Source: Candidatus Omnitrophota bacterium (GTDB taxonomy: Bacteria > Omnitrophota > Omnitrophia > Omnitrophales > Aquincolibacteriaceae). Taken from it: 64,000 nucleotides of DNA. The notes under the pieces are model-generated. The model ran no database searches, was not told the origin of the DNA, and worked only from the letters and a program-made list of their open reading frames with translations. Position numbers and translations under genes: made by a program. Each line of letters begins with the position of its first letter. The first letter of the stretch is position 1. Positions 128-33,186 of this stretch are shown in pieces. Where the stretch lies: positions 701 to 64,700 of the forward strand of contig CAISGE010000043.1 of assembly GCA_903884815.1 (NCBI GenBank), given 5' to 3'.

Positions 128-1477
128 CTACGCATGGCTATGTTCAAACGCCTCTCGCAAGACTGCCTGCGTCAAAAGTTCGGTTCTACATTCACGTTCG
201 ATTACTTGCTTCTCTAAATCATAAATCATGGCCATCAGCTCATTAACCCTCGCAACGATAATTCGTTGTTCCCAAATGGGCGGCAACGGAATAACCAAAT
301 TCATCAATGTGGGAAGTTTTATATTTGGTTGCCCCGCCATCTGATATGCGGCCTTCTTGATTTCAGGCTGTTTCGAACGAAGTAACATTAAGATATAATC
401 CTGATTGCTGTGCGAGGTTGGTTTAATACCTATCATGCTGTCGGGAAAACACATGTCCATCCCTAGAACGCCTAAATTTCCTATAGTCCCGCCAACGATA
501 GCCACTGCAATCGTACCTTTCACGAACTGTTTGGAAACTGAGAATCCTTTATCGTTTAAGGTTTGCTTAAAATCTGTTATGACATCTCCATTGGCACTTA
601 GAGAGCCTATCTGAATGAAAGGATATTTCCCGCCGTAACAGCTTTTGTCATTCCTTGGCCGAATCGAGAATCGACCTCTTTCAAACAATGCATAGTTGCC
701 AAACTTGCACCACACCCACCCTTCGGGCAAAACCATTTTGGTCTCTTCATCTGACGGAGGCGTTAAAATCTTTTCCTTACGCATTTTGCCTTTCGACACA
801 AGAATGTCTCTCTCGACTTGGATTTTCGCAAGAAGCTTTGAGGCATGATTTTCCCCTCTAGTCAGATGTGGATTTTGCCTCCGCCACTCCGAGGTAAGGT
901 TGCCAGCGATAGCTTCTTGAAGAATGGACTGACGTAGATATTTTAGATAATCAATCTGTTCTAAGTGGGTGGAACTCAATGCGTCAATTTTGTCAAAGCT
1001 TGAATTAATGCTATCTAACATTTTTTTTTGGTCGGATACAGACTTATGAATTGATAACCGTTGCCGAAGGAAAAACTCTTCTTTTATTCTTACCCGCCCC
1101 ATCCCTTTTGTTAACTGGTACAGCATATTTAAAAATAATCTTTGGCGGAAAAGATGTATCAAGTAATCTGGCAAAATAATTTTATCGTTGATTTCAAAAG
1201 TGGGCATTTCATTCGTAACAACTGCGCCGTCTAACTCTGCGGGAACTAGGCCGAAAGCTCCAGTATGGGCTGCCAGCCGTGAATAAATAAAGGAACCGCC
1301 CCTAACACGGTACGCTTTGTCTGCTTTTATATTTATACCTTTTTTTTCTTCCCGCAAACTCACAACGCCTGTTTTCGATATCGTCACAAGCTTATACATT
1401 TCATTCGCATGGATAGAAACATCGTCCTCGTATTGCTTAAGAAATGTCCCCAACTCAACGGCAATCATCTCATGCAT
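128..1477 (-). CDS. hsdS: Type I restriction-modification specificity subunit HsdS (two target-recognition domains)
   Basis: 449 aa. Overlaps hsdM by 8 nt, suggesting translational coupling. Two-repeat architecture with central and C-terminal coiled-coil spacers typical of HsdS. Confidence 0.8.
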   Translation of the reverse strand: MHEMIAVELGTFLKQYEDDVSIHANEMYKLVTISKTGVVSLREEKKGINIKADKAYRVRGGSFIYSRLAAHTGAFGLVPAELDGAVVTNEMPTFEINDKIILPDYLIHLFRQRLFLNMLYQLTKGMGRVRIKEEFFLRQRLSIHKSVSDQKKMLDSINSSFDKIDALSSTHLEQIDYLKYLRQSILQEAIAGNLTSEWRRQNPHLTRGENHASKLLAKIQVERDILVSKGKMRKEKILTPPSDEETKMVLPEGWVWCKFGNYALFERGRFSIRPRNDKSCYGGKYPFIQIGSLSANGDVITDFKQTLNDKGFSVSKQFVKGTIAVAIVGGTIGNLGVLGMDMCFPDSMIGIKPTSHSNQDYILMLLRSKQPEIKKAAYQMAGQPNIKLPTLMNLVIPLPPIWEQRIIVARVNELMAMIYDLEKQVIERECRTELLTQAVLREAFEHSHA

Positions 1478-2906
1478 TACTGAGCTCCTTTTTCAGCTTC
1501 TCTAGGAGCTCGTCACTTTTTCGAAACGAATCGTGGAGCATAGAAACAATCTCAGCACTCGAATTGAAGGACTCTTCTTCGGGCACATGCGGATTCTTGA
1601 TGTCGAGGCTGTATCCGTGCTCAGCTATCGTTTTTATTGAAACCTTCCACGCCTGCTCGTTCTCTTTGCGTTTCTTCCACCACTTTTTGAGACTTTCGAA
1701 TTCACTCGTTTGAATGGGCTTGGTTTTACTATACGCCTTCACAGCCTCTGGAAGCTTGTGCTCCCAATACCAAATTTCTTTAGTCGGCTTACCCCTTTCG
1801 AAGAAAAGAAGGTTCGTTGCAACACTGGCATAAGGCTGGAATACTGAGTTGGGTAATCGAACAATGGTATGCAGATTGCAGTTCTCAAGAAAGTGTTGGC
1901 GTATTCGTTGCTTTACGCCATCGCCTGTAAGCGAACCATCAGGCAAAACAATACCGGCCCGACCACCTTCGTTTAGATATCGAATCATTAGAAGCAGAAA
2001 CAAGTCCGCACTTTCCATTGTACGAAAGTTCTGAGGGAAATTCGTCTCTACTCCGTCTGTCACAGAGGCACCAAACGGCGGATTAGCAAGAATCACATCC
2101 ACACGGTCTTTCTGACCTATCGATGTGTATTCACGATTCAAGCTGTCTGTGTAATCGATGTTAGGAACTTCTATATCGTGCAAAATAAGGTTCGTGACAC
2201 TCAACATAAAAGGCAGAGGCTTGAATTCCATTCCATGGATTGTTTTCTCAAGCTCCTTAAGGTCTTTAACTCCCTTAACATCTTGCTTCCGAATGTTCTC
2301 AATGGCGCTAGTCAAGAAGCCACCTGTACCGCACGCCGGGTCTAATACTTTCTCCCCCAAGCGAGGGTTAATCATCTCTGTAATAAACTCGGTAAGCGCA
2401 CGAGGCGTATAAAACTCACCATAGTTGCCAGCATTTTGCAAGTCTCGCAAAATCGTTTCATAAATATCGCCAAACACATGACGGTCCTCGGAGCTGTTGA
2501 AGTCAATCTGGTTGAGCAGGTTAATCACTTGGCGAAGGATGGTGCCGTTTTTCATGTAGTTATTTGTGCCATCAAATATCTCACGGATAATCAATGCACG
2601 CTTGCTACCAGAGCTGACATCAAGATTCTTGAGTTGAGGGATTAGCTTGTCATCAATGAAATTCTTGAGCTCATCACCAGTCATCCCTTCGTCATCAGCC
2701 GCCCAATTACGCCACTGTAATTTTTTAGGCATAGCTGAAACATACTTGCCGTTAAGAAGCTCGAGCTCTTTATCTTTGTCATCCAATATTTTGAGACTAA
2801 TCATCCAGCCGAGCTGTTCAATGCGTTGAGCGTCACCGGATACGCCCGGGTCTTTGCGCATAATGTTTTGCAGGGCTTTGATAATACCGCCGATATTTTT
2901 CATCAC
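1470..2906 (-). CDS. hsdM: Type I R-M N6-adenine DNA methyltransferase HsdM
   Basis: 478 aa. Carries the ANPPFG catalytic motif (VILANPPFGAS) and the N-terminal HsdM domain. Confidence 0.9.
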   Translation of the reverse strand: MMKNIGGIIKALQNIMRKDPGVSGDAQRIEQLGWMISLKILDDKDKELELLNGKYVSAMPKKLQWRNWAADDEGMTGDELKNFIDDKLIPQLKNLDVSSGSKRALIIREIFDGTNNYMKNGTILRQVINLLNQIDFNSSEDRHVFGDIYETILRDLQNAGNYGEFYTPRALTEFITEMINPRLGEKVLDPACGTGGFLTSAIENIRKQDVKGVKDLKELEKTIHGMEFKPLPFMLSVTNLILHDIEVPNIDYTDSLNREYTSIGQKDRVDVILANPPFGASVTDGVETNFPQNFRTMESADLFLLLMIRYLNEGGRAGIVLPDGSLTGDGVKQRIRQHFLENCNLHTIVRLPNSVFQPYASVATNLLFFERGKPTKEIWYWEHKLPEAVKAYSKTKPIQTSEFESLKKWWKKRKENEQAWKVSIKTIAEHGYSLDIKNPHVPEEESFNSSAEIVSMLHDSFRKSDELLEKLKKELSNA

Positions 2907-2912
2907 AACTCC

Positions 2913-5309
2913 TTAGGCTACAGCGTAAATTTCGCGTTCAAGCTCTTCGATAGCTTCTAAATACTTATCTCTGCCACCAAATATTTTCACAATTTCAGCA
3001 GGGGTTCCAAATCGGTTGAAGGGTTCTACCCTTAAAACTGAAGGGTCTTCAATGTTGTCTATGCCCTCATCGGCATACTTATCCAACAAGGCATTCAGAA
3101 TTGTGCGAGCCTTATCCTCATACTTCGTGAAATAATTACGCTTCTTCACTTTGTCCGCACGCTCACGGCGTGTAAGAGGTGGCTTATCCCAAGCGATATG
3201 ACAAATAAGGTCGAATGCGTCCAAATCTTTCTTCACCTCAGAGAGGAGATTGTCGAGCATGATTCCATGTGATTCTAACTGGTCAATGACTGCTCGTTTC
3301 TTCTCGAAGCTATTCCACCTTGCAAGAAAGTCATCAAGAGACCGGAACTCCTTTAAGAGCCCATTTTTTGTATAGTCCTTCAGTGTCTCCGTAATTAATT
3401 TGCCATTCAAATCCAAATGCTGAACTCTCTCATTGAGCACAGAGACATCCACTCCGTTCACATAAACCTTCGGTCCTGGCCATGAGGTAATCGTTCCGCC
3501 CTTGATAATCTCGGGCTTGTTTACGCCGTCAGTTTTATCAAAGTCAACGGGCTTGCCTGTTTCACCGTCGATTATTTGAGTATCTCTCTCCGGGTTTATA
3601 ACTTCATCCGTCAGCTCTTCATCAGCCTTAATGACTTTAATCATTACCGGGTCACCATCAAAATCAGGGCGGGCAAAGATGTCTGTTGCGCTTCGAAAGT
3701 CAATAATAGTAAAGAAGGTTTTCCCGAAGTCCTCTCTGATGCGAGTTCCACGTCCTATGATTTGCTTGAATTCGGTAACAGATTTGATGTTCGAGTCGAG
3801 CACTATGAGTTTGCAGGTCTGAGCATCAACGCCAGTCGTCATTAACTTGGATGTAGTCGCAATAACAGGGTAGCGCTCTTCAGGATTAATGAAATTATCC
3901 ACCTGACGCTTGCCCTCATCGTCATCGCCTGTAATCCGCATCACGTACTTGTAATTCTCCTTTACCAAAGCAGGATTGAGTGTGACGAGAGCCCGTCGCA
4001 TGCGTTCTGCATGCTCAATATCAACGCAAAAAATAATCGTTTTATCAAAGCGATTGGTCTTCGTGAGATATTCAGTTACTTTTTTGGCAACCATTTGCGT
4101 TCGCTCATCTATGACGATGCTCTTGTCATAGTCCTTCGTATTGTAGATACGGTCTTCCACCTCTTTGCCGTCTTTGTCGGTCTTGCCTTCTTCAGGACGC
4201 CATCCTTCAAGGTCTGTATTGAGTCCCACACGGATGACCTTATAGGGTGCTAAAAATCCATCCTCAATGCCCTGCTTGAGCGTGTAGGTATAAACAGGGT
4301 CACCAAAGTATTCTATGTTCGAGACTTCTTTTGTCTCTTTCGGGGTGGCGGTCATGCCTATTTGCGTTGCAGAGCTGAAATAGTTCAATATCTCTCGCCA
4401 TGCGCTATCGGCATCGGCACTTCCTCTGTGGCACTCATCAACCACCACGAGGTCGAAGAAATCACGGCTAAATTCTTTGTAGGCATCCTTGTCCTCGTTG
4501 TAATCCACGAGCCCTTGATAGAGAGCAAGGTAGACCTCAAATGCCTTATCAATCTTCTTATGCTTGATAATCGTCATCTTGTCTTTGAAGTGCTTGAAGT
4601 CATTACGCTTGGTCTGGTCAAGAAGCACGTTGCGGTCAGCCAAGAATAGAATTCTCTTCTTCATGCCACTTTTCCAAAGGCGGTAGATAATCTGAAAAGC
4701 CGTATAGGTTTTTCCTGTTCCAGTAGCCATTACGAGAAGGATTCTGTTCTGTCCTTTAGCAATGGCTTCGACTGTTCGATTGATGGCAATTTGCTGATAG
4801 TAGCGTGGAGTTTTTCCGGAGCCTTCGTAGAAATAGTCAAAACTTGCAATCTCTTCCTGCTTCGGCGTGGCAATGCCCTTGAACTTCTTGTACATGCTCC
4901 AGAGAGCATCAGGGGAAGGAAAATTTTCTAAGGTCAGCTCAATTTCAATAGACGCTGAAAATCCGGAGCTGTCATGCTGAATAAACCCGTCCCCATTTGA
5001 ACTAAAAGCAACAGGCACATCCAGTATTTTCGCATACCCGAGAGCTTGTTGCATCCCAGCGCCAACAGAATGGTTGTTATCCTTCGCTTCAATGACAGCT
5101 ATGGGAATGTTAGGCTTGAGATAGAGAATGAAGTCTGCTCGCTTGCGTTCCCCTCGTGCAGTTTTTTGGCCTTTGACAAAAATTCGGCCATCTGTGAAAT
5201 AGACCTCTTCTCGGACTTGCTTCTGGATATCCCACCCGGCTTTGACGAGAGCTGGCAAGATGAACTGCGTGCAAATATCTCTTTCGGAGAGTTCTTTTTT
5301 GGATGTCAT
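2913..5309 (-). CDS. hsdR: Type I restriction endonuclease subunit HsdR (short form, 798 aa)
   Basis: N-terminal MTSKKELSERDICTQFILPALVKAGWD nuclease domain followed by SF2 helicase motifs (MATGTGKT, DECHRG). Confidence 0.9.
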   Translation of the reverse strand: MTSKKELSERDICTQFILPALVKAGWDIQKQVREEVYFTDGRIFVKGQKTARGERKRADFILYLKPNIPIAVIEAKDNNHSVGAGMQQALGYAKILDVPVAFSSNGDGFIQHDSSGFSASIEIELTLENFPSPDALWSMYKKFKGIATPKQEEIASFDYFYEGSGKTPRYYQQIAINRTVEAIAKGQNRILLVMATGTGKTYTAFQIIYRLWKSGMKKRILFLADRNVLLDQTKRNDFKHFKDKMTIIKHKKIDKAFEVYLALYQGLVDYNEDKDAYKEFSRDFFDLVVVDECHRGSADADSAWREILNYFSSATQIGMTATPKETKEVSNIEYFGDPVYTYTLKQGIEDGFLAPYKVIRVGLNTDLEGWRPEEGKTDKDGKEVEDRIYNTKDYDKSIVIDERTQMVAKKVTEYLTKTNRFDKTIIFCVDIEHAERMRRALVTLNPALVKENYKYVMRITGDDDEGKRQVDNFINPEERYPVIATTSKLMTTGVDAQTCKLIVLDSNIKSVTEFKQIIGRGTRIREDFGKTFFTIIDFRSATDIFARPDFDGDPVMIKVIKADEELTDEVINPERDTQIIDGETGKPVDFDKTDGVNKPEIIKGGTITSWPGPKVYVNGVDVSVLNERVQHLDLNGKLITETLKDYTKNGLLKEFRSLDDFLARWNSFEKKRAVIDQLESHGIMLDNLLSEVKKDLDAFDLICHIAWDKPPLTRRERADKVKKRNYFTKYEDKARTILNALLDKYADEGIDNIEDPSVLRVEPFNRFGTPAEIVKIFGGRDKYLEAIEELEREIYAVA

Positions 5310-5339
5310 TCTATGTTCTTCTTTTGCATATCTAAATTT

Positions 5340-6050
5340 TTAGACAACGTCAGGGAAACTTTTGAGAATCTTGTATTTCAAATAGGTATTAGTGGCTTCG
5401 ACAACTTCAATACGAACGCCTTTGAAACCAATCGTTTTACTTTCGTTTAAATCATACTGAATTTCTTGCGAGAATGCAGGGCGCATTACGTCATTGGAAA
5501 GTTCTCTATACATAAACTTAACGCTATTTCCTACCTTGCCATTATAGAGAAGCTCTTGTTGAAAACTTGCCTTATCGATGGCACGTATTTTTTTCAGCTG
5601 GTAGTTTGGCGTTGGTTCAGGAGGGCCTTTTGTATACGGATGGCTACCAGCAAGTAAAAAAACTTCTACGGAACTATTTTTTTTAGAAATTCGCAATCCA
5701 CCCACTGCTTGAAAAGGCGCCCCGCCAACAGTAAAGTCCTTTGAAGAAAAATACGTCCAATTAGAATCTTCGCATTGAACAATCAAGTCGCCCTGCGGTA
5801 TTGTTACTACTGAGCCATAAAGAAATGTCGTCTTGAAATCCCCCTTCGAGTGGACTTCATTAAGGAGTTTCATGCCCTGATAAGTATAGAGCGTGCCTTT
5901 TGAAACAATTGTGTCGCCCAGCTCCGCTTGTTGCTCTTGATTCAGTTTCGGGATATCTATTTTTTCTAAATTTGGCTGGATTCCTCTTAATGAAGCTGTA
6001 GCGCATCCGCTCATCAATATTAAAATCGCCGCAAGGTATATTTTTTTCAT
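5340..6050 (-). CDS. Lipoprotein of unknown function
   Basis: Lipobox signal (MKKIYLAAILILMSGC). Overlaps the upstream HTH gene by 4 nt. Confidence 0.6.
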   Translation of the reverse strand: MKKIYLAAILILMSGCATASLRGIQPNLEKIDIPKLNQEQQAELGDTIVSKGTLYTYQGMKLLNEVHSKGDFKTTFLYGSVVTIPQGDLIVQCEDSNWTYFSSKDFTVGGAPFQAVGGLRISKKNSSVEVFLLAGSHPYTKGPPEPTPNYQLKKIRAIDKASFQQELLYNGKVGNSVKFMYRELSNDVMRPAFSQEIQYDLNESKTIGFKGVRIEVVEATNTYLKYKILKSFPDVV

Positions 6051-6229
6051 TTACTCTTCCGGCCCAATAGCTTCTCGATGTGATAAGTTTGTATCTTATT
6101 TGGCGTCTTTATCTTTCCGGTAAACCACCTATTGACCGTGCAGAAAGAAACCCCTAGCCTTTCGGCGAGTTCCTGCTGGGAGATACGCTTTTCCAGTCGG
6201 TATGTTTCTAATTTTTCTATCAAGTTCAT
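6047..6229 (-). CDS. XRE-family helix-turn-helix transcriptional regulator (60 aa)
   Basis: HTH_3-like motif ISQQELAERLGVSFCTVNRW. Confidence 0.65.
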   Translation of the reverse strand: MNLIEKLETYRLEKRISQQELAERLGVSFCTVNRWFTGKIKTPNKIQTYHIEKLLGRKSK

Positions 6230-6297
6230 ATGTTTAGCCTCTTATAGCATCTTATATCATGTCGTGATAAACTCCAATTGGTTATTCTGGAGGAAAA

Positions 6298-7224
6298 ATG
6301 GCACTTAAAACATCGAAAAAAACATACCAAAAAAACTACCTGCATTCGCAGTTAAGATGGCAAATAGCGGTAAGAAATCCCGATTTTTCAAAAGCTTTGA
6401 TTCAGCTATTTAAAAAAATCGATGAGATTAACGAGAAGTTTGGCCTACCTTCAATAACTCATCCAGATTATAAAAGCGCTGTTAAAAAACTCGATGCGCA
6501 TTCCGACCTCGAAAGAATGCACGTAATTCTTCCCTTGATAGAAAAACTCAAAGAAAAGTTCAATCTTTCTACAATTGAAGTCAATACAGCACGCCTGCCT
6601 GATGACATAAGAAGGATATTTAATATTTTCACAGCCCCCGTTAGATTTTTATGGAATGAAAATCCGCATCCCGGCAGATATATAGACCTTCGCATCGATG
6701 CACTCGCTGATTTGGAAGTTATCAAGTGTCAGGTGGGCATGATGATGAAAGTCATTTGCAATGGCGAGAAAGAAGGCGTTTTTAAAATACCTGGCCGAGA
6801 ATCTCACAAATTGCACTTGAGCAAAGCGAGTACATATATTCGAGTCTTTGACATGAGAAAAAGAAAGCCGCCTGTCCCGTATGAAGAAATTGCTACAAAG
6901 CTACAGAAGGATGGTTTCTATAAGGGATTAACTTTGAAAAAAGTGGTCAATTCCGCACGGCACGATTTTAGTTTAATCTTTGAAGAAATATACGGTGTCC
7001 CTTTCAAACAATACGACGCAAAGAAATTTAAAAGTGCTGGCATTAAGGAGTGCGCCATATGCGAAAAAAGGTCGCAGTGCAAGGAACTTTGCGCCCCAAT
7101 TTCTTATTTGCTATCGCTAGAAGAGGTTAAGCAACAACATTTTATAAGCACAAAAGCAGACGCAAGAGAGCAGTACAGAGATACCCACTCAGAGGAAGAC
7201 GCAGAAGAGCACGCCAATATCTAG
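6298..7224 (+). CDS. Hypothetical protein (308 aa), island cargo
   Basis: Good RBS (GGAGGaaaaATG). Contains a CxxC...C...C cluster near the C-terminus. No recognisable family. Confidence 0.5.
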   Translation: MALKTSKKTYQKNYLHSQLRWQIAVRNPDFSKALIQLFKKIDEINEKFGLPSITHPDYKSAVKKLDAHSDLERMHVILPLIEKLKEKFNLSTIEVNTARLPDDIRRIFNIFTAPVRFLWNENPHPGRYIDLRIDALADLEVIKCQVGMMMKVICNGEKEGVFKIPGRESHKLHLSKASTYIRVFDMRKRKPPVPYEEIATKLQKDGFYKGLTLKKVVNSARHDFSLIFEEIYGVPFKQYDAKKFKSAGIKECAICEKRSQCKELCAPISYLLSLEEVKQQHFISTKADAREQYRDTHSEEDAEEHANI

Positions 7225-7243
7225 CAAAACAACATAGCCACAA

Positions 7244-7591
7244 TTGAGAGGGCGAGGGCAAATAGCTTCTCGCCTTTTTTGTTTTCAGTCATACCCCTTT
7301 TTTCACACTCCCGCAGGCGATGCTTTCCCAGCCTCGCTTTTTTATCCCCAGCAGATGGTCATGGGTATACCCGTTTTTTCACTTTCCCATAGGTGTATGA
7401 AACATGACACCGCAGAAAACAAACCAATTCAAGAGTGGGAAAGGAGGTATGAAAAGCCTCTCTCAGCAGAGGACTACAAGCAAATCTGTAGCAATCTCGA
7501 CGGGTTTTTCACACTGCTAAAAAAATGGGACCTAGCAAATCAAACACAAATAAAAGGAGACTGCCATGAGAAAAACAGTAAAAACATTTGA
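7244..7591 (+). CDS. Hypothetical small protein (start uncertain)
   Basis: ORF only. The N-terminal part may be non-coding. Confidence 0.25.
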   Translation: MRGRGQIASRLFCFQSYPFFHTPAGDAFPASLFYPQQMVMGIPVFSLSHRCMKHDTAENKPIQEWERRYEKPLSAEDYKQICSNLDGFFTLLKKWDLANQTQIKGDCHEKNSKNI

Positions 7592-7838
7592 ATACAACGG
7601 TGTAACCCTAACCTATGCGCATAAAAAATATAGGTGGAATGGCTGCTGGCGTGATGTCCCCACCGTTACTATCCGGAGGAATTACCTAGATAAAAAATCC
7701 GACTCAAAACGGCCCACATTTTACAGTGAGGTCGACATCAATAATCTTGCAATAGCTATGTGTGAATTAAGAGATTACATGCTATGCGCAGAGAGATTGG
7801 ATGAGCCCGGATATTGTATGGATTGGAACATTGGTTAA
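7566..7838 (+). CDS. Hypothetical protein (90 aa)
   Basis: RBS AAGGAG 8 nt upstream of the ATG. Confidence 0.5.
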   Translation: MRKTVKTFEYNGVTLTYAHKKYRWNGCWRDVPTVTIRRNYLDKKSDSKRPTFYSEVDINNLAIAMCELRDYMLCAERLDEPGYCMDWNIG

Positions 7839-7877
7839 AAAGCGTAGTGAAAATTAAACATAAAAAAGGAGAAAACA

Positions 7878-8207
7878 ATGCCAACGCTACTGAATGACGA
7901 CAGCGACTACGTACCATTTATAAACCCAAGCCAGATTACAGACGGGGAAGAAGTCGAATTTGTGTCGGAAGGGAAATATACAGACGACCAGTTCGGTTCC
8001 AATCGACTGCAAATGGACGTTCGTTTTTCGAATGGGCAAGTACAGAGACTTACTGTAAATAAAACGTCTCAAAAAAACTTGTCGACCGTCTATGGACCGG
8101 AAACCGAAGCTTGGGTTAATCGCAAAGCCCGAATAACTGCAACTAAAAGGCCAACGAGTGTGCCCGGAAAGTGGAAATTCGTAGTAACCCTCTACCCTAT
8201 CGAATAA
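7878..8207 (+). CDS. Hypothetical protein (109 aa)
   Basis: RBS AAAGGAG upstream of the ATG. Confidence 0.5.
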   Translation: MPTLLNDDSDYVPFINPSQITDGEEVEFVSEGKYTDDQFGSNRLQMDVRFSNGQVQRLTVNKTSQKNLSTVYGPETEAWVNRKARITATKRPTSVPGKWKFVVTLYPIE

Positions 8208-8770: not shown

Positions 8771-10279
8771 ATGAAAGCTGTCATTTACGCAAGAGTTTCG
8801 TCAAAAGAACAGGAGCAGGAGGGCTATTCAATTCCGGCACAGCTTAAACTTCTCAAGGAGTATGCCGCAAAAAACAACTATCAGATTGTGAAGGAGTTCG
8901 TGGACATTGAAACCGCCAAAAAGGCTGGACGGGAAAATTTCAATACCATGATTCAGTTTGTAAAAGCTGATGTGAATATCAAGGCTGTTCTATGCGAAAA
9001 AACGGACAGGCTCTACAGAAACTTCAAAGACTATGTGACAGTCGATGAACTCGACTTAGAAATCCATCTCGTTAAAGAGTCAGAGGTTTTAAGCAAAAAC
9101 TCAAAATCGCATCAAAAGTTTATTCACGGGATAAAGGTATTGATGGCTAAAAACTACATCGACAACCTTGTTGAGGAAACTCGCAAAGGCATGCTTGAAA
9201 AAGCCGAGCGGGGCATATTCCCATCCGGGGCCTCCTTGGGGTATATCAATGCTGAGAAAAAGGCAGAGGGCAATACGATAAGGTATCTGGAGCTAGATAA
9301 GACCCGTGCGCCTGTCATAAATAAAATATTCAGACTCTATGCTACTGGCAAATACTCTATGGAAAAACTGGCGGAGATAGCTTTTGATGATGGCTTCAGA
9401 AATAAACGTGGTAGCAGAGTGAACAAATCGGTCATTGAGTTCATCCTGAAAAATCCCGTCTATTGCGGTGACTTTAGATGGAACAATCGTCTATATCAGG
9501 GAACACATGAAAAAATTGTGACAAAGGAACTCTTTGAGGCCGCACAAGCTCAGCTTAACGGGTCGAACAGACCTAAGCTCGTTAAGGGATTCGCTTATTC
9601 CGGGCTCCTTACTTGTGCAAAATGCGGATTCTCTATCACTGCCGAAATAAAGAAAGGGCGATACGTCTATTACCACTGCACTGAACGAGGCGGGCCTTGT
9701 GGCAATGCGTATGTCAGAGAAGAGGAATTAACCAAGCAGTTTGCCGAGATAGTAAAACAAATTCATATCGATGATGAGATATTGGAGTCCGTTAAAAAAG
9801 CTCTGCTAGAAAGTCATGAAGATGAACGCATGTACCATGCGCAAAAGGTCACGGCACTAAGCGTCCAAAAAGAACGTCTTGAGAATAGGATTCACCAAAT
9901 ATACATCGATAAACTGGATAAGAAAATTTCCAATGACAAATACGAAGCAATGACTTTTGAGTGGAACGAGGAATTAGGCAGAATGCAGAGAGAAATCGCT
10001 AAACACGAGAATGCTGATGCTAATTACCTTTCGCAGGGCGTTCACATTCTCGAACTTTGTAACCGTGCTTACGGTCTGTACTTACAGCAGGAGCCTCGTG
10101 AGGGTGCTAAAATACTGCATACCATACTATCGAACTGCAAGATGGATGGCGTAACTCTAATACCAGAAATGAGAAAGCCCTTTGACATTATCGCCAAAGG
10201 GCTCTCTCGTCTAGAATGGCTCCCCCGCCTGGGATCGAACCAGGGACACTGCGGTTACGGTCTGACTTCAGTTGCCTGA
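8771..10279 (+). CDS. Large serine recombinase (resolvase/invertase N-terminal domain, recombinase domain, zinc ribbon)
   Basis: N-terminal AVIYARVSSKEQ catalytic-Ser motif. C-terminal CAKCG...YYHC zinc ribbon. The last 21 codons as drawn read through the tRNA-Asn 3' exon, so the true stop may be earlier. Confidence 0.85.
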   Translation: MKAVIYARVSSKEQEQEGYSIPAQLKLLKEYAAKNNYQIVKEFVDIETAKKAGRENFNTMIQFVKADVNIKAVLCEKTDRLYRNFKDYVTVDELDLEIHLVKESEVLSKNSKSHQKFIHGIKVLMAKNYIDNLVEETRKGMLEKAERGIFPSGASLGYINAEKKAEGNTIRYLELDKTRAPVINKIFRLYATGKYSMEKLAEIAFDDGFRNKRGSRVNKSVIEFILKNPVYCGDFRWNNRLYQGTHEKIVTKELFEAAQAQLNGSNRPKLVKGFAYSGLLTCAKCGFSITAEIKKGRYVYYHCTERGGPCGNAYVREEELTKQFAEIVKQIHIDDEILESVKKALLESHEDERMYHAQKVTALSVQKERLENRIHQIYIDKLDKKISNDKYEAMTFEWNEELGRMQREIAKHENADANYLSQGVHILELCNRAYGLYLQQEPREGAKILHTILSNCKMDGVTLIPEMRKPFDIIAKGLSRLEWLPRLGSNQGHCGYGLTSVA

Positions 10280-10524
10280 AGAGTCGGACTTTCTCTTTGC
10301 CATATCCAAAATACTTGGACTTAGGCAGCAGGTGTAAAGTCTCTGCACTTGCCCTCCCGCCAAAGGCGGGATGCTAGCTCAGGATAGCCCCAACGCTTTT
10401 TGTTGGGATTTCCCTGACTTAGCCTGCTTATTCACCCTAAAGTTTCCCTTAGGGGCTGCTAACTTTGAGCGTGCTACGCTCACTCGTGCACAGCCGCATG
10501 CTCTACCAGCTGAGCTACAGGGGA
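10217..10524 (-). tRNA. tRNA-Asn(GUU) interrupted by a group I intron (exon 1 10490..10524, exon 2 10217..10257, CCA encoded)
   Basis: Exon sequence is UCCCCUGUAGCUCAGCUGGUAGAGCAUGCGGCUGU / UAACCGCAGUGUCCCUGGUUCGAUCCCAGGCGGGGGAGCCA. It is near-identical in architecture to E. coli tRNA-Asn. The anticodon loop CUGUUAA is restored after removing 232 nt. Confidence 0.7.
10258..10489 (-). ncRNA. Group I self-splicing intron (232 nt) in the anticodon loop of tRNA-Asn
   Basis: The 5' exon ends in U and the intron ends in G. P1 pairs GGCUGU with the IGS GCAGCC, giving a U.G wobble at the splice site. An R-like element (GUGCAGAGACU) and an S-like element (AAGAGAAAGUCCGAC) are present. No internal ORF. 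Confidence 0.6.
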
Positions 10525-10541
10525 ATAACATTTGAAAGAAC
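10517..10541. repeat. Direct repeat copy A (ACAGGGGAATAACATTTGAAAGAAC), covering the tRNA-Asn 5' acceptor strand plus 17 nt of leader
   Basis: Matches copy B at 10867-10891 in 24 of 25 positions. Confidence 0.7.
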
Positions 10542-10548
10542 GATGCTA

Positions 10549-10788
10549 CTAAAACCATTTTAAGAACTTCCTGCCTGCACCCGTTTTTAAATACTTCTCA
10601 CGAAGCAGCGCTTCTTTCCTAGAACGGTAATCCTCGGAACACAAGAGCGTGAAAGGACCGTTACTTCTTGTCCAAGCGTTCTTTCCTTCGTTGTGTTCTG
10701 CCAAACGAGTCTGAACTGATTTCCGGGTAAATCCGACATAGGACTTACCGTTCTTCAAACTCTTCAAAACATAAACATGATATATCAT
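10549..10788 (-). CDS. GIY-YIG nuclease family protein (79 aa, URI domain)
   Basis: Has YVYVL...GKSYVGFT, the GIY-YIG motif. It ends 24 nt upstream of the tRNA-Asn 5' end. Confidence 0.75.
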   Translation of the reverse strand: MIYHVYVLKSLKNGKSYVGFTRKSVQTRLAEHNEGKNAWTRSNGPFTLLCSEDYRSRKEALLREKYLKTGAGRKFLKWF

Positions 10789-10809
10789 AAAAAATCAATT
10801 GAGCTTCCG

Positions 10810-10863
10810 CCTTGAATTGAAAAACAATTCAAGGACGGATCCGTCCTCGCCTCAAGCGAGGCG
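10810..10863. other. Cluster of three consecutive hairpins (10-bp perfect stem CCTTGAATTG/CAATTCAAGG, palindrome GGACGGATCCGTCC, and CGCCTC-aagc-GAGGCG)
   Basis: Read directly. Confidence 0.5.
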
Positions 10864-10866
10864 GAA

Positions 10867-10891
10867 CAGGGGAATAACTTTTGAAAGAACA
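10867..10891. repeat. Direct repeat copy B (ACAGGGGAATAACTTTTGAAAGAAC)
   Basis: Together with copy A it brackets the GIY-YIG gene. Confidence 0.7.
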
Positions 10892-11015
10892 AATACGAAT
10901 CCAAGCAAAAAACGTCAAGACTTATCGATTACGGCTCAGCGCTTATCCCTTGGAGGCGTCAATTATAAAGATTGCGGCCCCTGGGTCAATGAGTGTTTTT
11001 GCCAAGTTTTTAGGT

Positions 11016-11043
11016 TTGCTTTGAAGTCCATAGGTGCTATATT
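11016..11043 (+). promoter_or_regulatory. Putative sigma70 promoter (TTGCTT, 16-nt spacer, TATATT)
   Basis: Sequence match. Lies 38 nt upstream of the ATG at 11081. Confidence 0.35.
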
Positions 11044-11080
11044 TTCACTGAGTCCGGCACCCAAACGAAAGGCAGTTCCC

Positions 11081-11437
11081 ATGACTTCAAAATCAGTTGT
11101 GCTGCTCTTAAGTCTCATCGCGATACTGGGGTTTTCCCCTTCGCGCGCGGTTTTCGCCGAAGACGATACCCTGGTGATGGAGTCCTTTCAAACAGTATCA
11201 GGCAGTGTAACGGAGGTGGATACGGATCACAAGCGGATCACGTTCCGATGGATGGCCGATGACCTCCGATTGCAATACCAGGATGTTGTGCTGGACGTCC
11301 CGGACACATGCGTGATCACCAAGAATTCGGAGACGATCGAGTTGACTGACCTTGAGTCGGGAGATTCCGGCACCGTGCGCTTCGATGAGAATGCCCAGCC
11401 CCTTCCAAAGGCAAGCTCCATCACGATCACAGAATAG
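11081..11437 (+). CDS. Small secreted protein of unknown function (118 aa)
   Basis: Signal peptide [26 protein letters not shown]. The upstream in-frame extension of the drawn ORF (10799..11080) is probably non-coding. Confidence 0.5.
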
Positions 11438-31943: not shown

Positions 31944-31996
31944 TCGGGGAACGGGGAACGAATCGTTAGCCGTTCCCTGGGGATCGTTCCCCGTCG
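31944..31996. repeat. Heptad-periodic palindromic element, GGGAAC/AACGG-type, overlapping the 3' end of the HI0933-like gene
   Basis: CGGGGAACGGGGAACGAATCGTTAGCCGTTCCCTGGGGATCGTTCCCCGTCGG. Confidence 0.6.
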
Positions 31997-33186
31997 GAGC
32001 TTTTAGCTCCGGCTACCGCGCCGCTGGCCCAGGCCCAGGCAAGATTGTAGCCGCCCCGCCGTCCCTGAACATCGAGAATTTCCCCCGCGAAATAAAGACC
32101 TTTTTTAAGGCGGGATTCCAGCGTCTCCGGGTCCACATCTTCCAACCGTATCCCCCCCGCCGTGAACTCCGCTTCATTCCAACCGCGTGTCCCGATCACT
32201 TTAAATTCCTTATGCTTGAGCAGGCGGGCGATCGCCGCCGCATCGGAATCTTGCAAAGTCCCGCGAAGAAGTCCTGACATTTTATGAGGCAGCAGCCCTT
32301 CCACGAGATTCTCCCGGTGGATCCCTCTCTCCAATTTCCCGGACAGCTCTGCCACAAGCTCTTTCTCTTCCATGAACGGGACAAGGTCCACCGTCACCGT
32401 GACATTCGATATGTGATCGCGATTGACGGCAACCGAGATCTCATCGCTCACGTCGAGTACCGCCGTCCCGGAAAGTCCGTACTGTGTAAAAAGGAGTTCC
32501 CCCGTCGCTGTGCGGATCTCATTTCCCTGAATGCGACTCGTCACCGCGGCCCGGACCTTCTGCCCCTGAAGCGCATGACACCACGGATCTTTCACGATAA
32601 GAGCCACGGTGCTTGGCACCGGTTCCAGGATCTTGTGACCCAACGCCGCCGCGAGGGTGTAACCGTTGCCGTCGGCTCCGAGCGCGGGGTAGGATTTGCC
32701 GCCGGCACACAGGATCACTTTGCGTCCCGTCTCCGCTTCCCCGCTTCTTGCGCGAACTTCAAAACCATTCTTGGCAGGACGGACACTCTGGATCTCACAG
32801 CCAAGATCAAGCACCACCTTGAGCCGTTCCAGTTCCATCTCAAGGACTTTCAGCACCGACGCGGCCTGATTGGTCACCGGAAAGACGCGACCGGACTCAT
32901 CCGCGTAAACGGCAAGCCCGAGTTCTTTGAAAAATTGAAGCATAGCGTCTTTTCCAAACTGCTCTAGGACCGAACGAACCAAGGCTTGACCCGCGGGATT
33001 GTAAAAAGAGGCGTCGAGGGTTTCGTTCAAAAGGTTGCAGCGGCCGGCGCCGGTGACGAGGAGTTTCTTCCCGAGCTTCGGCATCTTTTCACAAAGGAGC
33101 ACAGACGCCCCCTGGCGCTTCGCGGTGATCGCCGCCATGATCCCGGCGGCACCTCCACCGATCACGATCACATCATACGGTGTCAT
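31966..33186 (-). CDS. HI0933-like (YhiN/aminoacetone oxidase family) NAD(P)/FAD-dependent oxidoreductase
   Basis: YDVIVIGGGAAGIMAA Rossmann motif. 406 aa. The C-terminal tail is encoded by the repeat element. Confidence 0.8.
   Translation of the reverse strand: MTPYDVIVIGGGAAGIMAAITAKRQGASVLLCEKMPKLGKKLLVTGAGRCNLLNETLDASFYNPAGQALVRSVLEQFGKDAMLQFFKELGLAVYADESGRVFPVTNQAASVLKVLEMELERLKVVLDLGCEIQSVRPAKNGFEVRARSGEAETGRKVILCAGGKSYPALGADGNGYTLAAALGHKILEPVPSTVALIVKDPWCHALQGQKVRAAVTSRIQGNEIRTATGELLFTQYGLSGTAVLDVSDEISVAVNRDHISNVTVTVDLVPFMEEKELVAELSGKLERGIHRENLVEGLLPHKMSGLLRGTLQDSDAAAIARLLKHKEFKVIGTRGWNEAEFTAGGIRLEDVDPETLESRLKKGLYFAGEILDVQGRRGGYNLAWAWASGAVAGAKSSDGERSPGNG

Follow-up and report, generated by a model that had tools for sequence, protein, structure and literature searches.

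The locus described here raises a question of origin: how did a small GIY-YIG nuclease gene come to lie between two copies of the same 25-bp sequence, directly beside a tRNA-Asn gene? The arrangement was found in a 64-kb window of Candidatus Omnitrophota DNA (the whole stretch that was analyzed), and a previous sequence-only reading had taken it for the insertion of a homing-endonuclease-like cassette between the tRNA and its original leader. Orthologous sites in syntenic relatives were compared with the window, and a survey of 80 homologous loci was drawn from GTDB species genomes (Omnitrophota, Patescibacteria and others) with a query alignment of 10 closer sequences.

Architecture of the tRNA-Asn locus

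The repeat, ACAGGGGAATAAC[A/T]TTTGAAAGAAC, occurs only twice in the window (Table 1), its copies being identical at 24 of 25 positions, and it did not occur in any of 100 dinucleotide-preserving shuffles with 3 mismatches tolerated; the direct repeat reported around the GIY-YIG gene is hence genuine. Some particulars of that report needed correction. Its second copy, given as 10867-10891, was one nucleotide away from the actual 10866-10890, and the copy described as 7 nt of tRNA plus 17 nt of leader actually holds 8 plus 17, i.e., the 7-nt acceptor strand plus U8. The 79-aa ORF does lie between the copies but not "exactly" so, as the hairpin, AGCTCA and an 11-nt spacer stand before it and 7 nt after it.

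Table 1 Features of the tRNA-Asn locus in window coordinates
Feature	Position	Strand	Details
Sigma-70-type promoter of the tRNA-Asn unit	10962..10989	-	TTGACC (10989-10984), 16-nt spacer, TATAAT (10967-10962)
Native pre-tRNA 5' leader, upstream of the duplication	10891..10961	-	3' part (GATAAGTCTTGACGTTTTTTGCTTGGATTCGTATTT) common with L104
Upstream repeat copy	10866..10890	-	Leader -17..-1 (10890-10874) and pseudo-copy of tRNA positions 1-8 (10873-10866)
GC-rich double-hairpin element (DHE), 60 nt	10806..10865	-	Core stems TCCGCC/GGACGGA and TCCGTCC/GGCGGA; enlarged self-pairing loops
AGCTCA and spacer	10789..10805	-	Pseudo-copy of tRNA positions 9-14 (10805-10800), then 11-nt AT-rich spacer to the start codon
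GIY-YIG ORF, 79 aa	10549..10788	-	Stand-alone UPF0213/Slx1-like nuclease domain
Downstream repeat copy	10517..10541	-	Leader -17..-1 (10541-10525) and functional tRNA-Asn positions 1-8 (10524-10517)
tRNA-Asn(GUU) host gene, outside the cassette	10220..10524	-	Exon 1 10524-10490, exon 2 10257-10220, encoded CCA 10219-10217
Group I intron, 232 nt, no ORF	10489..10258	-	Rfam RF00028 at 10485-10265, 51.8 bits; splits the tRNA after position 35

The segment present in the window and absent from the empty-site relative L104 amounts to 349 bp and comprises the GC-rich double hairpin, the 79-aa GIY-YIG gene and an extra copy of the leader and tRNA start. The GIY-YIG gene is the sole ORF between the repeat copies, and no recombinase is encoded there. 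A target-site duplication of the transposon type was rejected, since neither terminal inverted repeats flanking the cassette nor a transposase domain (Pfam) was found and the duplication is variable in length: the duplicated tRNA segment ranges in relatives from ~8 to >60 nt and is interrupted by GC double hairpins. The upstream repeat copy is identical to its ortholog in L110 at 24 of 25 positions, despite saturated synonymous sites in the ORF.

On the unspliced sequence the tRNA-Asn gene was missed by ARAGORN, and once the sequence was spliced at points set by group I rules (the 5' exon ending in U, the intron in G) the program called tRNA-Asn(GTT). The intron-containing tRNA that had been noticed beside the cassette is thus present, with an RF00028 match of 51.8 bits; the ortholog in L004/L011 is intron-less. 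The promoter is the sole promoter-like site in 10100-11100, agrees with the consensus at 11 of 12 positions, and its sequence (CACTCATTGACCC...TATAATT) is kept throughout the syntenic relatives, whether they have the cassette or lack it. It lies 71 nt further upstream than the repeat, which rules out the option that the repeat is a general promoter motif. In L104, the 3' part of the leader, GATAAGTCTTGACGTTTTTTGCTTGGATTCGTATTT, directly adjoins the single leader/tRNA copy. As the cassette is situated downstream of the tRNA promoter, it is probably transcribed together with the tRNA, judging from the order of the elements.

The sequence GTT CTT TCA AAT GTT ATT CCC CTG TAG reads in frame as VLSNVIPL* and resembles the ...KIIPR* and ...VTPL* ends of those relatives whose ORF stops inside the tRNA. 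The conserved GTTCTTT...TAT leader was considered, and not established, as a possible relic of an ORF 3' end.

Empty and filled sites in syntenic relatives

L104 is syntenic with the window: the neighboring 118-aa protein is 75% identical, gpmA is 98% identical over the 96 aa that are present, and the same upstream flank (...GATAAGTCTTRRCGTTTTTTGCTTGGRTWCGTATTT) is found. It carries one GTTCTTTCAAATGTTAT-TCCCCTGTAGC copy and lacks the GIY-YIG gene. A single copy with no cassette was likewise found in L108, L092, L098, L100, L101, L103, L106 and L112. All nine empty-site relatives carry the tRNA-Asn promoter of the window, and five of them were aligned across the site (L092, L098, L103, L104 and L108). 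The search for an empty site with one 25-mer, which the sequence-only reading had proposed as its check, was thus positive in L104 and eight others, and these single-copy sites bear out that the cassette was inserted between the tRNA and the leader and promoter that originally preceded it, duplicating the target. Where the cassette is present, in the window, L110 and L107, it sits at the identical junction of TCCCCTGT and TCCGCC.

Presence of the cassette does not follow relatedness. Identity of gpmA to the window is 98% in L104, 96% in L108 and 96% in L092, all of which are empty, and 91% in L110 and L102, which are filled; with the closest relatives empty and more distant ones filled, gain or loss must have been repeated. 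The ORF is under purifying selection, with a dN/dS of 0.07 between the window and L110. For the same pair, dS is ~1.7 in the ORF (short, and with saturated synonymous sites) and 0.70 in the neighboring gpmA. The higher value in the ORF therefore gives no sign of recent transfer, while the saturation and the shortness of the ORF would leave room for it. From these alignments, vertical descent with repeated precise loss would fit equally well as transfer.

The intron varies independently of the cassette. Both are present in the window and L107, the cassette without the intron in L110 = L004 = L011, the intron without the cassette in L104, L108, L092 and others, and neither in L094, L105 and L113. 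In L104, L092, L098 and L103 the intron has its own 98-aa HNH ORF (PF01844, 22.2 bits). The suggested homing link between cassette and intron accordingly finds no support at this locus, as all four combinations occur and the relatives' intron brings its own ORF. An intron-encoded endonuclease was also rejected, because the GIY-YIG ORF lies upstream of the tRNA, the intron is ORF-less here, and cassette and intron occur separately.

The nuclease, its hairpin and the wider family

The identification of the ORF at 10549-10788 as GIY-YIG is upheld by a PF01541 match over residues 3-69 (54.5 bits, cut-off 22.6, E = 1.4e-14). A profile search against the PDB matched 1zg2 (3e-13), 1ywl (1e-11) and SLX1 (1e-5 to 1e-3), and neither I-TevI nor UvrC was matched in this search. 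The AF2 model (pLDDT 94) comprises one beta-beta-alpha-alpha-beta-alpha-alpha domain with no auxiliary domain, for which the top Foldseek matches were 1zg2, Slx1 (7cq2, 6seh and 4xm5) and 1ywl, with I-TevI and UvrC at E ~1. By these profile and predicted-structure comparisons, the protein is assigned to the stand-alone UPF0213/Slx1 lineage rather than the I-TevI/Seg or UvrC type. Across 26 homologues, Y6, Y17, G19, R28, H32 and E64 are invariant and N33 nearly so.

The protein ends 10 residues past the catalytic domain, a C-terminal DNA-binding module being absent, and it scores 14.5 bits against the cut-off of 56.05 for the I-TevI/Seg-type family TIGR01453. On both counts a classical GIY-YIG homing endonuclease was rejected; the earlier phrase "homing-endonuclease-like" holds for the presence and absence at a fixed site but not for the type of enzyme.

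The DHE folds as two hairpins with a minimum free energy of -36.8 kcal/mol and can alternatively be drawn as a four-way junction around a central palindrome, GGACGGATCCGTCC. It is found as a single copy within the window. Neither the DHE nor the leader matched any Rfam 15 family at gathering score, and at E <= 5 only chance-level matches on the opposite strand were obtained. In alignments anchored by the flanks, compensatory changes preserve the pairing in the orthologs of L110 and L107; window and L110 are identical at 51 of 62 positions, with compensatory differences, while the ORF has a pS of 0.68. It is these flank-aligned orthologs that serve as usable evidence for hairpin conservation. 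Among 22 canonical 30-nt double hairpins of the wider family, pairing was 100% and 6 of 12 pairs had double changes, a covariation that is circular and was discounted because the sequences had been pre-selected by a hairpin filter. The consensus of the bacterial double hairpins is TCCGCC-ARA-GGCGGA-YCAGCC-TYT-GGCTGR, and a strand-asymmetry test of RNA versus DNA action counted 22 G.T against 19 A.C mismatches, a split that favors neither.

In the survey, 32 of 80 loci have a strict GC double hairpin in the 200 nt preceding the ORF, in most loci 11-50 nt from the ORF start, and 10 of 58 double hairpins lay outside the cassette neighborhood (227 kb scanned). The hairpin is a clean insertion in a pseudo-tRNA, after which the tRNA sequence resumes for 5-15 nt; the second unit of L107, for instance, keeps AGCTCAGC (tRNA positions 9-16) after its hairpin. 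Insertion points were located in the D loop (between positions 17 and 18), the anticodon stem (between 28 and 29), the anticodon loop and the T loop, and some pseudo-tRNA copies hold several hairpins. None was seen inside an intact tRNA or protein gene in the surveyed loci.

Linkage to stable RNA genes runs through the family. The GIY-YIG ORF is linked to a tRNA or rRNA gene in 74 of 80 loci, and a same-strand tRNA starts between -87 and +55 nt from the ORF stop in 51 of the 80. The stop codon is the U8-A9-G10 TAG of the tRNA itself in 18 of those 51, and the resulting ORF-tRNA overlap of 10 nt in these 18 loci leaves no space for a separate tRNA promoter. In ~10 further loci an intact tRNA lies just upstream and a 3' partial copy downstream; at least 6 loci have an intron-containing tRNA-Asn that ARAGORN missed, and in one locus (L090) the host is a 16S rRNA gene. 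At 40-120 nt upstream of the ORF, 31 of 50 tested loci have a significant partial copy of the cognate tRNA, corresponding to its 5' part, and the reverse-complement control gave a comparable score in only 1 of 50 (L045). Tandem or nested units occur in L107 and L034, and L009 has two cassettes at neighboring tRNA genes.

Protein clades track tRNA identity. In 48 of 74 cases a protein and its nearest neighbor share the type of tRNA they lie beside, a count that never exceeded 23 when 1000 permutations were run. Members of the tRNA-Asn clade come from Omnitrophota, from several lineages of Patescibacteria and from MAGs labeled Planctomycetia or Gammaproteobacteria. At 17 of 27 tRNA-Asn loci, the tRNA fragment upstream stops at the anticodon (positions 35-37). 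As a separate observation at the family level, the group I intron site between positions 35 and 36 coincides with this common fragment end. The UPF0213-type family as a whole comprises 26,214 clusters at 50% identity (E <= 1e-3), and 6,814 clusters at E <= 1e-10. The more distant paralogue P0025 (45% identity) belongs to a sugar-nucleotide operon whose gene table lists no tRNA, the locus itself not having been scanned for tRNA genes, so tRNA linkage is not universal in UPF0213. We know of no cleavage activity or target for stand-alone UPF0213 proteins, and no description of an association of UPF0213 with tRNA genes, or of its mobility, was found in searches of the freely readable literature.

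Origin of the cassette and likeness to known systems

Given the cassette anatomy, its presence and absence at orthologous sites, the position of the promoter, the purifying selection on the ORF, the conserved hairpin and the tRNA linkage of the family, we favor, with some reserve, the reading that the 349-bp unit is a selfish and mobile homing-like cassette within the transcription unit of tRNA-Asn. By inserting in the 5' part of the tRNA gene, it would strand the resident promoter, leader and positions 1-8 (to ~14-16) upstream as a pseudo-fragment, while a copy at the 3' end of the cassette would keep the tRNA gene intact; the 25-bp repeat would then be the overlap of the stranded fragment with the cassette-borne copy. 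The nuclease gene, for which no separate promoter-like site was found in the interval scanned, would be transcribed from the strong tRNA promoter, and RNase P would cut the tRNA from the 3' end of the shared transcript. Spread and maintenance would proceed by nuclease-initiated recombinational repair, in which the stranded tRNA fragment and the intact tRNA at the other end may act as portable homology arms, and recombination between the repeats could remove the cassette. We infer that the protein cleaves DNA, that it recognizes either a sequence or, as Slx1 does, a hairpin or cruciform, and that the cassette moves by double-strand-break repair.

Other points speak against homing. It is not apparent how a 79-aa catalytic domain could recognize one particular sequence, and the intact downstream tRNA still holds any target in the tRNA body, which leaves self-immunity unexplained. 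The upstream pseudo-copy and the GTTCTTT leader motif are also conserved beyond what a neutral scar would lead one to expect, which hints at a further function outside the model.

Several of the same observations would also suit an enzyme beneficial to the host and tied to tRNA genes or tRNA, vertically inherited and held in the tRNA operon for co-expression, with the repeats and hairpins as slippage by-products or regulatory RNA and the empty sites as losses. Its task might be to resolve R-loops or cruciforms where tRNA genes are highly transcribed, or to process or repair RNA. The strong purifying selection (dN/dS 0.07), an ORF dS that is not below that of gpmA and thus shows no recent transfer, and the conservation of hairpin and upstream pseudo-copy all agree with it. 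So does B. subtilis yazA, the neighbor of a tRNA methyltransferase gene. A prokaryotic Slx1-like domain is furthermore fused to a TrmH-type tRNA methyltransferase, from which a role in RNA metabolism has been suggested (PMC1564403). Nevertheless, we hold a host enzyme to be unlikely, since presence and absence are interleaved among close relatives, one protein clade sits at the same tRNA species across phyla, and units occur in tandem or nested (L107, L034), as paired cassettes (L009) and within a 16S rRNA gene (L090); moreover, a housekeeping role needs no partial duplicate of each neighboring tRNA.

The clean hairpin insertions at several pseudo-tRNA positions, sometimes several per copy, and the 10 of 58 hairpins away from the ORF could alternatively signify that the GC double hairpin is the true mobile unit, MITE-like and mobilized in trans by the Slx1-like nuclease, with the ORF and tRNA duplications as passengers or scars of breakage and repair. 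Slx1, the nearest characterized relative, cleaves branched and stem-loop DNA (PMC6902002, PMC8287910). This origin is nonetheless quite improbable, as the hairpin is a single copy in the window, was seen within no intact tRNA or protein gene in the surveyed loci, and in most loci is coupled to the ORF start at 11-50 nt, a tightness unexpected for an independent element. Scarcely credible is a duplication of att sites by a site-specific recombinase, or a repeat due to chance or a promoter. A large serine recombinase gene (8771-10279) does adjoin the tRNA, and tRNA genes are classic integration sites, but the recombinase and its island flank the tRNA on its opposite (3') side. A search of the 64-kb window for the tRNA's native downstream flank found none, which places the far end of that island outside it. 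L110 and L004 have the cassette without a nearby recombinase, in L104 the recombinase at the 3' end is a different one (32% identity) and the cassette is missing, and this independent distribution contradicts the att reading; serine recombinases, moreover, exchange at a 2-bp core and make no 25-bp duplications. A chance or promoter repeat is opposed by its uniqueness in the window, the zero occurrences expected by chance and the location of the promoter elsewhere.

Carrying the selfish-cassette reading further, it is possible, if speculative, that the unit represents an undescribed class of bacterial mobile element, in which a minimal Slx1-like nuclease and a GC double hairpin home into tRNA (occasionally rRNA) genes via duplicated-tRNA homology arms, recognizing DNA structure (a hairpin, cruciform or cloverleaf that the element or the tRNA gene extrudes) and not sequence. 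A tRNA-linked locus with empty sites, together with the tRNA linkage of the family, suggests a testable role for UPF0213, that of a selfish cassette exploiting the promoters and sequence of tRNA genes. In 2006, a survey of the superfamily characterized stand-alone prokaryotic Slx1-like proteins as vertically inherited, housekeeping-like and of unknown function, proposed the stand-alone domain as the ancestral GIY-YIG form, and posed the question of whether other GIY-YIG lineages could be molecular parasites (PMC1564403). If the selfish reading is true, thousands of UPF0213 proteins, from Patescibacteria, Omnitrophota and further phyla, would count as selfish and not housekeeping, and parasitism would be the life style of the stand-alone Slx1-like domain. 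In terms of annotation, the tRNA genes of these phyla may hold pseudo-5' halves and hairpins, into which ORF callers extend genes, and tRNA finders miss the intron-bearing copies. For the evolution of tRNA genes, such cassettes would generate partial duplications and possibly split or chimeric genes. Should the nuclease be structure-recognizing, it could offer a very small programmable or structure-specific nuclease tool.

Free-standing GIY-YIG homing genes with a partial copy of the host gene are known from fungal mitochondria, where the ORFs are fused to the ends of atp6 or cox; the Allomyces atp6 case was reportedly described by Paquin, Laforest and Lang in 1994. The cassette resembles them in the ORF within an essential gene, the element-supplied duplicate, the displaced pseudo-fragment, the direct repeats and the variable presence. 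It differs in that the host is a bacterial tRNA gene whose 5' (not 3') part is duplicated, transcription is from the host promoter instead of by in-frame fusion, and the 79-aa Slx1-like domain has no DNA-binding module. Another kindred case is SegB of phage T4, a Seg-type enzyme of ~220 aa with a DNA-binding region. It is a free-standing GIY-YIG homing endonuclease encoded in the T4 tRNA gene cluster, and its cleavage of the tRNA gene region leads to preferential inheritance of segB and its flanks (PMC2330249; PMC13096335). The free-standing GIY-YIG gene among tRNA genes is the common element; unlike the cassette, SegB is of the I-TevI/UvrC lineage, is phage-borne and has no partial tRNA duplication or GC double hairpins.

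With regard to the protein itself, the best matches BH0048 (1zg2) and EF2693 (1ywl), together with E. coli YhbQ and eukaryotic SLX1, have the same minimal GIY-YIG fold and catalytic residues, although SLX1 requires SLX4 and a RING domain, both of which are absent here. The hairpin recalls the DHEs of Allomyces and the GC clusters of yeast, short GC-rich two-hairpin elements of AT-rich fungal mitochondrial DNA that are inserted in non-essential parts of structural RNA genes and in intergenic regions and were historically found near mobile endonuclease ORFs. Shortness, GC-richness and two adjacent hairpins are common to both; the present element is bacterial, has a different consensus and is tied to one ORF family and to tRNA pseudo-copies, and homology is neither shown nor expected. 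Finally, tRNA-integrating genomic islands likewise target a tRNA gene, restore it by a duplicate segment and leave a direct repeat, but they rely on tyrosine or serine recombinases, extend over kilobases and as a rule duplicate the 3' end, whereas the cassette measures 349 bp, encodes no recombinase and duplicates the 5' end.

The tRNA-Asn locus and its empty and filled alleles

Two copies of the 25-mer ACAGGGGAATAAC[A/T]TTTGAAAGAAC lie in the window, identical at 24 of 25 positions; no third copy was found there even at three mismatches, and none arose in 100 dinucleotide-preserving shuffles. The bracketing repeat of the sequence-only reading is thus real, although its second copy had been placed one nucleotide off and lies at 10866-10890. 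Repeat, tRNA, intron, ORF and promoter are all on the minus strand. No tRNA was called in the window by ARAGORN; a group I intron was matched at 10485-10265 (Rfam RF00028, 51.8 bits), and its flanks, joined by group I rules (5' exon ending in U, intron ending in G), splice to a 73-nt tRNA-Asn(GUU) with encoded CCA. From these limits, the first repeat copy comprises tRNA positions 1-8 and 17 nt of leader.

Features of the tRNA-Asn locus, in window coordinates except for the last row
Feature	Position	Strand	Basis
Promoter TTGACC-16-TATAAT	10989-10962	minus	
Native leader, 71 nt	10961-10891	minus	
Upstream repeat: leader -17 to -1 and TCCCCTGT	10890-10866	minus	
GC-rich element, 60 nt	10865-10806	minus	
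AGCTCA, tRNA positions 9-14	10805-10800	minus	
AT-rich spacer, 11 nt	10799-10789	minus	
GIY-YIG ORF	10788-10549	minus	PF01541, E = 1.4e-14
7 nt between ORF and downstream repeat	10548-10542	minus	
Downstream repeat, continuing into the real tRNA	10541-10517	minus	
tRNA-Asn exon 1	10524-10490	minus	group I splice rules
tRNA-Asn group I intron	10489-10258	minus	splice rules and RF00028
tRNA-Asn exon 2	10257-10220	minus	group I splice rules
HNH-bearing tRNA-Asn intron (related locus L104)	L104 6618-6914	minus	

A search of metagenome contigs for GTTCTTT-N10-TCCCCTGTAGCTCAG gave 26 loci, nine of which are empty (L092, L098, L100, L101, L103, L104, L106, L108 and L112): they have the window's promoter (CACTCATTGACCC...TATAATT), a single leader/tRNA copy and no GIY-YIG gene. 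L104 is clearly orthologous to the window locus, its adjoining 118-aa protein being 75% identical and its gpmA 98% identical over the 96 aa present, and there the flank GATAAGTCTTRRCGTTTTTTGCTTGGRTWCGTATTT runs straight into the single leader/tRNA copy, leaving 349 bp extra in the window. This empty site bears out the proposed insertion with target duplication. The cassette is inserted in the 5' region of the tRNA gene, downstream of the tRNA promoter, and the duplicated 5' segment keeps the tRNA intact.

The cassette is polymorphic among relatives. The filled alleles L110 (the same locus as L004 and L011) and L107 share exactly the window's junction of TCCCCTGT with TCCGCC, with cassette proteins 82% and 60% identical to that of the window, respectively. 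L107 (1042 nt) contains three leader/tRNA(1-8) copies, two hairpin elements and one ORF, as if two units had been stacked and one of them had then lost its ORF. By gpmA the closest relatives of the window are empty (L104, L108 and L092, 96-98% identity), whereas the filled L110 and L102 stand at 91%, which implies more than one gain or loss.

A link between cassette and intron had also been raised as a possibility and was not found at this locus, where each occurs without the other: in L110 the cassette lies beside an intron-less tRNA-Asn, L108 has an ORF-less intron as in the window and no cassette, and in L104, L092, L098 and L103, likewise without the cassette, the intron bears a 98-aa HNH ORF (PF01844, 22.2 bits) near its 5' end. 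The intron is thus served by a separate homing endonuclease, unrelated to the cassette protein.

The leader motif GTTCTTT at -17 of tRNA-Asn (window 10525-10541 and 10874-10890) is common to many of the related loci L091-L116, which otherwise differ in promoters and tRNA sequences. Translated in frame into the tRNA, this leader reads VLSNVIPL and a stop. Homologues with an ORF that stops in the U8-A9-G10 TAG of the tRNA have similar C-termini (KIIPR, VTPL), and the motif may be a processing signal or what is left of an earlier cassette. L092 and L110 have in common a 64-nt GC-rich insert (GCTGTTCTTCGAGCGAAA...GGAGCCGCCCTTGAAGGCCGAAGGCCGG...) between promoter and GTTCTTT, which starts with a GTTCTT-like motif; it may be an older cassette that has decayed, at a site otherwise "empty".

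On the 3' side, a large serine recombinase ORF of 502 aa (8771-10279, plus strand) converges on the tRNA, crosses exon 2 in antisense and reaches the intron; the tRNA complement thus encodes its last ~20 residues (...EWLPRLGSNQGHCGYGLTSVA). The island behind it (128-8207) holds a type I R-M system with ORFs of 798, 478 and 449 aa. In L104 the same place is taken by a different recombinase (4766-6421, 32% identical), and its gene, too, stops within the complement of the tRNA. By this pattern the 3' end of tRNA-Asn appears to be a hot spot for serine-recombinase islands in which the attachment site lies within the recombinase gene. A terminator-like 17-bp hairpin followed by a T-rich run (10171-10208, minus strand), 9 nt past the tRNA CCA, falls within the recombinase ORF of the opposite strand, and the window lacks the native terminator present in L108 and L110 (CCCGTGCGAACCAAG...).

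Linkage of the gene family to stable-RNA genes

Homologous loci (n = 80, 43-82% identity) were taken from one-genome-per-species contigs, the hosts being mainly Omnitrophota and many Patescibacteria lineages, with others in MAGs labelled Planctomycetia, Gammaproteobacteria, Chloroflexota and more. A same-strand tRNA starts -87 to +55 nt from the ORF stop in 51 of the 80, and in 18 of these 51 the ORF ends exactly in the tRNA's U8-A9-G10 TAG. About ten more loci have a mirror layout (L019, L042, L058, L078 and L083, for example), in which an intact tRNA just upstream is followed by the ORF and a 3' partial copy with duplicated trailer. ARAGORN missed an intron-bearing tRNA-Asn in at least six loci, and in L090, a Zambryskibacteria MAG (~1380-1800), the host is a 16S rRNA gene in place of a tRNA: rRNA sequence flanks the homologue, which lies in the 5' region of that gene. 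In total, 74 of 80 loci show linkage to a stable-RNA gene, and the clade to which the cassette belongs shares one layout of three parts (ORF, partial copy and hairpin). Genomes have roughly one tRNA gene per 25-80 kb, which puts chance adjacency at ~0.1%.

The linked tRNA types are Asn (27), Ala, Val, Pro, Gly, Lys, Ile, Gln, Met, His, Thr and Arg. In 48/74 cases a protein and its nearest neighbour sit at the same type of tRNA, compared with a maximum of 23 when labels were permuted 1000 times. Host relatedness contributes to this figure, but the tRNA-Asn protein clade still crosses phyla. L009 (400-2400) has two cassettes, at adjoining tRNA-Val and tRNA-Ala genes.

Of the 50 loci that have a tRNA downstream, 31 gave a significant local alignment to a copy of its 5' part, which lies 40-120 nt upstream of the ORF and starts at about position 1 or as far as 19 nt into the leader; with the reverse complement as control, only L045 (1/50) scored comparably. 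By strict search, two adjacent GC hairpins lie within 200 nt upstream of the ORF in 32/80 loci and within 250 nt downstream in 13/80, with only 10 elsewhere in 227 kb (consensus TCCGCC-ARA-GGCGGA-YCAGCC-TYT-GGCTGR). The hairpin cleanly interrupts the pseudo-copy at sites including the D loop (17/18), anticodon stem (28/29) and anticodon loop, after which come 5-15 nt more of tRNA sequence, a short AT-rich spacer and the ORF. In L034 (1350-1900), tandem tRNA D-arm fragments and double hairpins alternate both before and after the ORF.

The 60-nt element, present once in the window and matching no Rfam family, follows this design with bigger loops, as do related forms in L005/L022 and L015. Its two adjacent hairpins (-36.8 kcal/mol) have base stems TCCGCC/GGACGGA and TCCGTCC/GGCGGA and enlarged, self-pairing loops; the central palindrome GGACGGATCCGTCC also allows a drawing as a four-way junction. 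Between window and L110 it is identical at 51/62 positions, every difference being compensatory in a stem or in a loop, against 68% synonymous difference in the ORF, so that the element, which may act as RNA or as DNA, is constrained. The only other strict GC double hairpin of the window, at 31978-32013 (TGGGGATCGTTCCCCGTCGGAGCTTTTAGCTCCGGC), is unrelated in sequence.

In 17 of the 27 tRNA-Asn-linked loci (among them L012, L015, L018, L020-L024, L029, L030, L033-L036, L043 and L048) the upstream fragment ends at G(G/A)CTGT, anticodon positions 35-37, directly after a double hairpin inserted at 28/29. These ends coincide with the group I intron insertion point at 35/36, which may reflect shared target preference or shared ancestry. 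Intron-bearing tRNA-Asn genes occur also in several other lineages (L015, L027, L041, L043, L047 and L082), all missed by ARAGORN.

The nuclease and the probable mode of spread

The profile of 26 homologues matches the UPF0213 proteins BH0048 (1zg2, 3e-13) and EF2693 (1ywl, 1e-11) in the PDB, then SLX1 (1e-5 to 1e-3), with no match to I-TevI or UvrC. The AF2 model (pLDDT 94) is one minimal domain, for which Foldseek ranks 1zg2, Slx1 structures and 1ywl at the top and I-TevI and UvrC only at E ~1. Residues Y6, Y17, G19, R28, H32 and E64 are invariant among homologues. The family numbers 26,214 clusters (50% identity) at E <= 1e-3 and 6,814 at E <= 1e-10, nearly all members being 80-125 aa. The cassette protein belongs to the stand-alone Slx1/UPF0213 lineage; the homing-endonuclease-like type first assigned to it is contradicted by the want of a DNA-binding module and by a score of 14.5 bits against a cut-off of 56 for the NCBIfam group I intron endonuclease model (TIGR01453). 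Between window and L110 the ORF has a dN/dS of 0.07, with synonymous sites saturated (pS 0.68), and selection maintains the gene.

P0025, a paralogue at greater distance (45% identity), is part of a dTDP-sugar/nucleotidyltransferase operon (L117, 1501-1782); the gene table, the source for tRNAs at this locus, lists none. Its N-terminal MNPVR extension is common to several homologues, and sample ERZ1426827 is the source of one P0025 contig and of a contig with the window's protein; P0025 may represent the housekeeping UPF0213 copy, in the same organism or in one related to it.

We consider the unit probably a mobile cassette. The ORF would be expressed from the tRNA promoter, the 10-nt ORF/tRNA overlap in 18 relatives leaving no room for another, and the tRNA would be released by RNase P. 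The nuclease would start recombination, the upstream fragment and downstream tRNA could serve as homology arms for entry into the same tRNA gene in any genome, and recombination between the repeats could remove the unit. As the nearest characterised relatives (Slx1) are structure-specific, the hairpin or a cruciform is a plausible substrate.

This mobile reading has weak points: the domain is tiny and lacks a reading head, recognition within the tRNA should leave the intact copy a target, the dS between window and L110 is higher for the ORF (~1.7) than for gpmA (0.70) and so does not point to recent transfer, and the upstream pseudo-copy is kept beyond neutral expectation. That the protein is instead a host-beneficial, tRNA-linked enzyme seems unlikely to us, if worth keeping in view; that the hairpin is the primary mobile unit, with the nuclease gene secondary, we hold to be improbable, and recombinase att sites or chance account for the arrangement only with very slight probability.

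Comparison with known systems

The cassette resembles free-standing homing endonuclease genes in supplying a replacement piece of the host gene, as fungal mitochondrial GIY-YIG ORFs do. T4 SegB is the tRNA-gene example (PMC2330249). The homing endonuclease enzyme family differs from the cassette protein in the domain composition and model score described here. According to a 2006 survey, the stand-alone Slx1/UPF0213 lineage is vertically inherited and its function is not known (PMC1564403). No report of a UPF0213-tRNA gene association was found in literature that covered few subscription journals, and the locus leads to a widespread, apparently undescribed arrangement of nuclease gene, hairpin and partial tRNA copy, whose hairpins share with fungal mitochondrial double-hairpin elements and GC clusters a likeness of form only.
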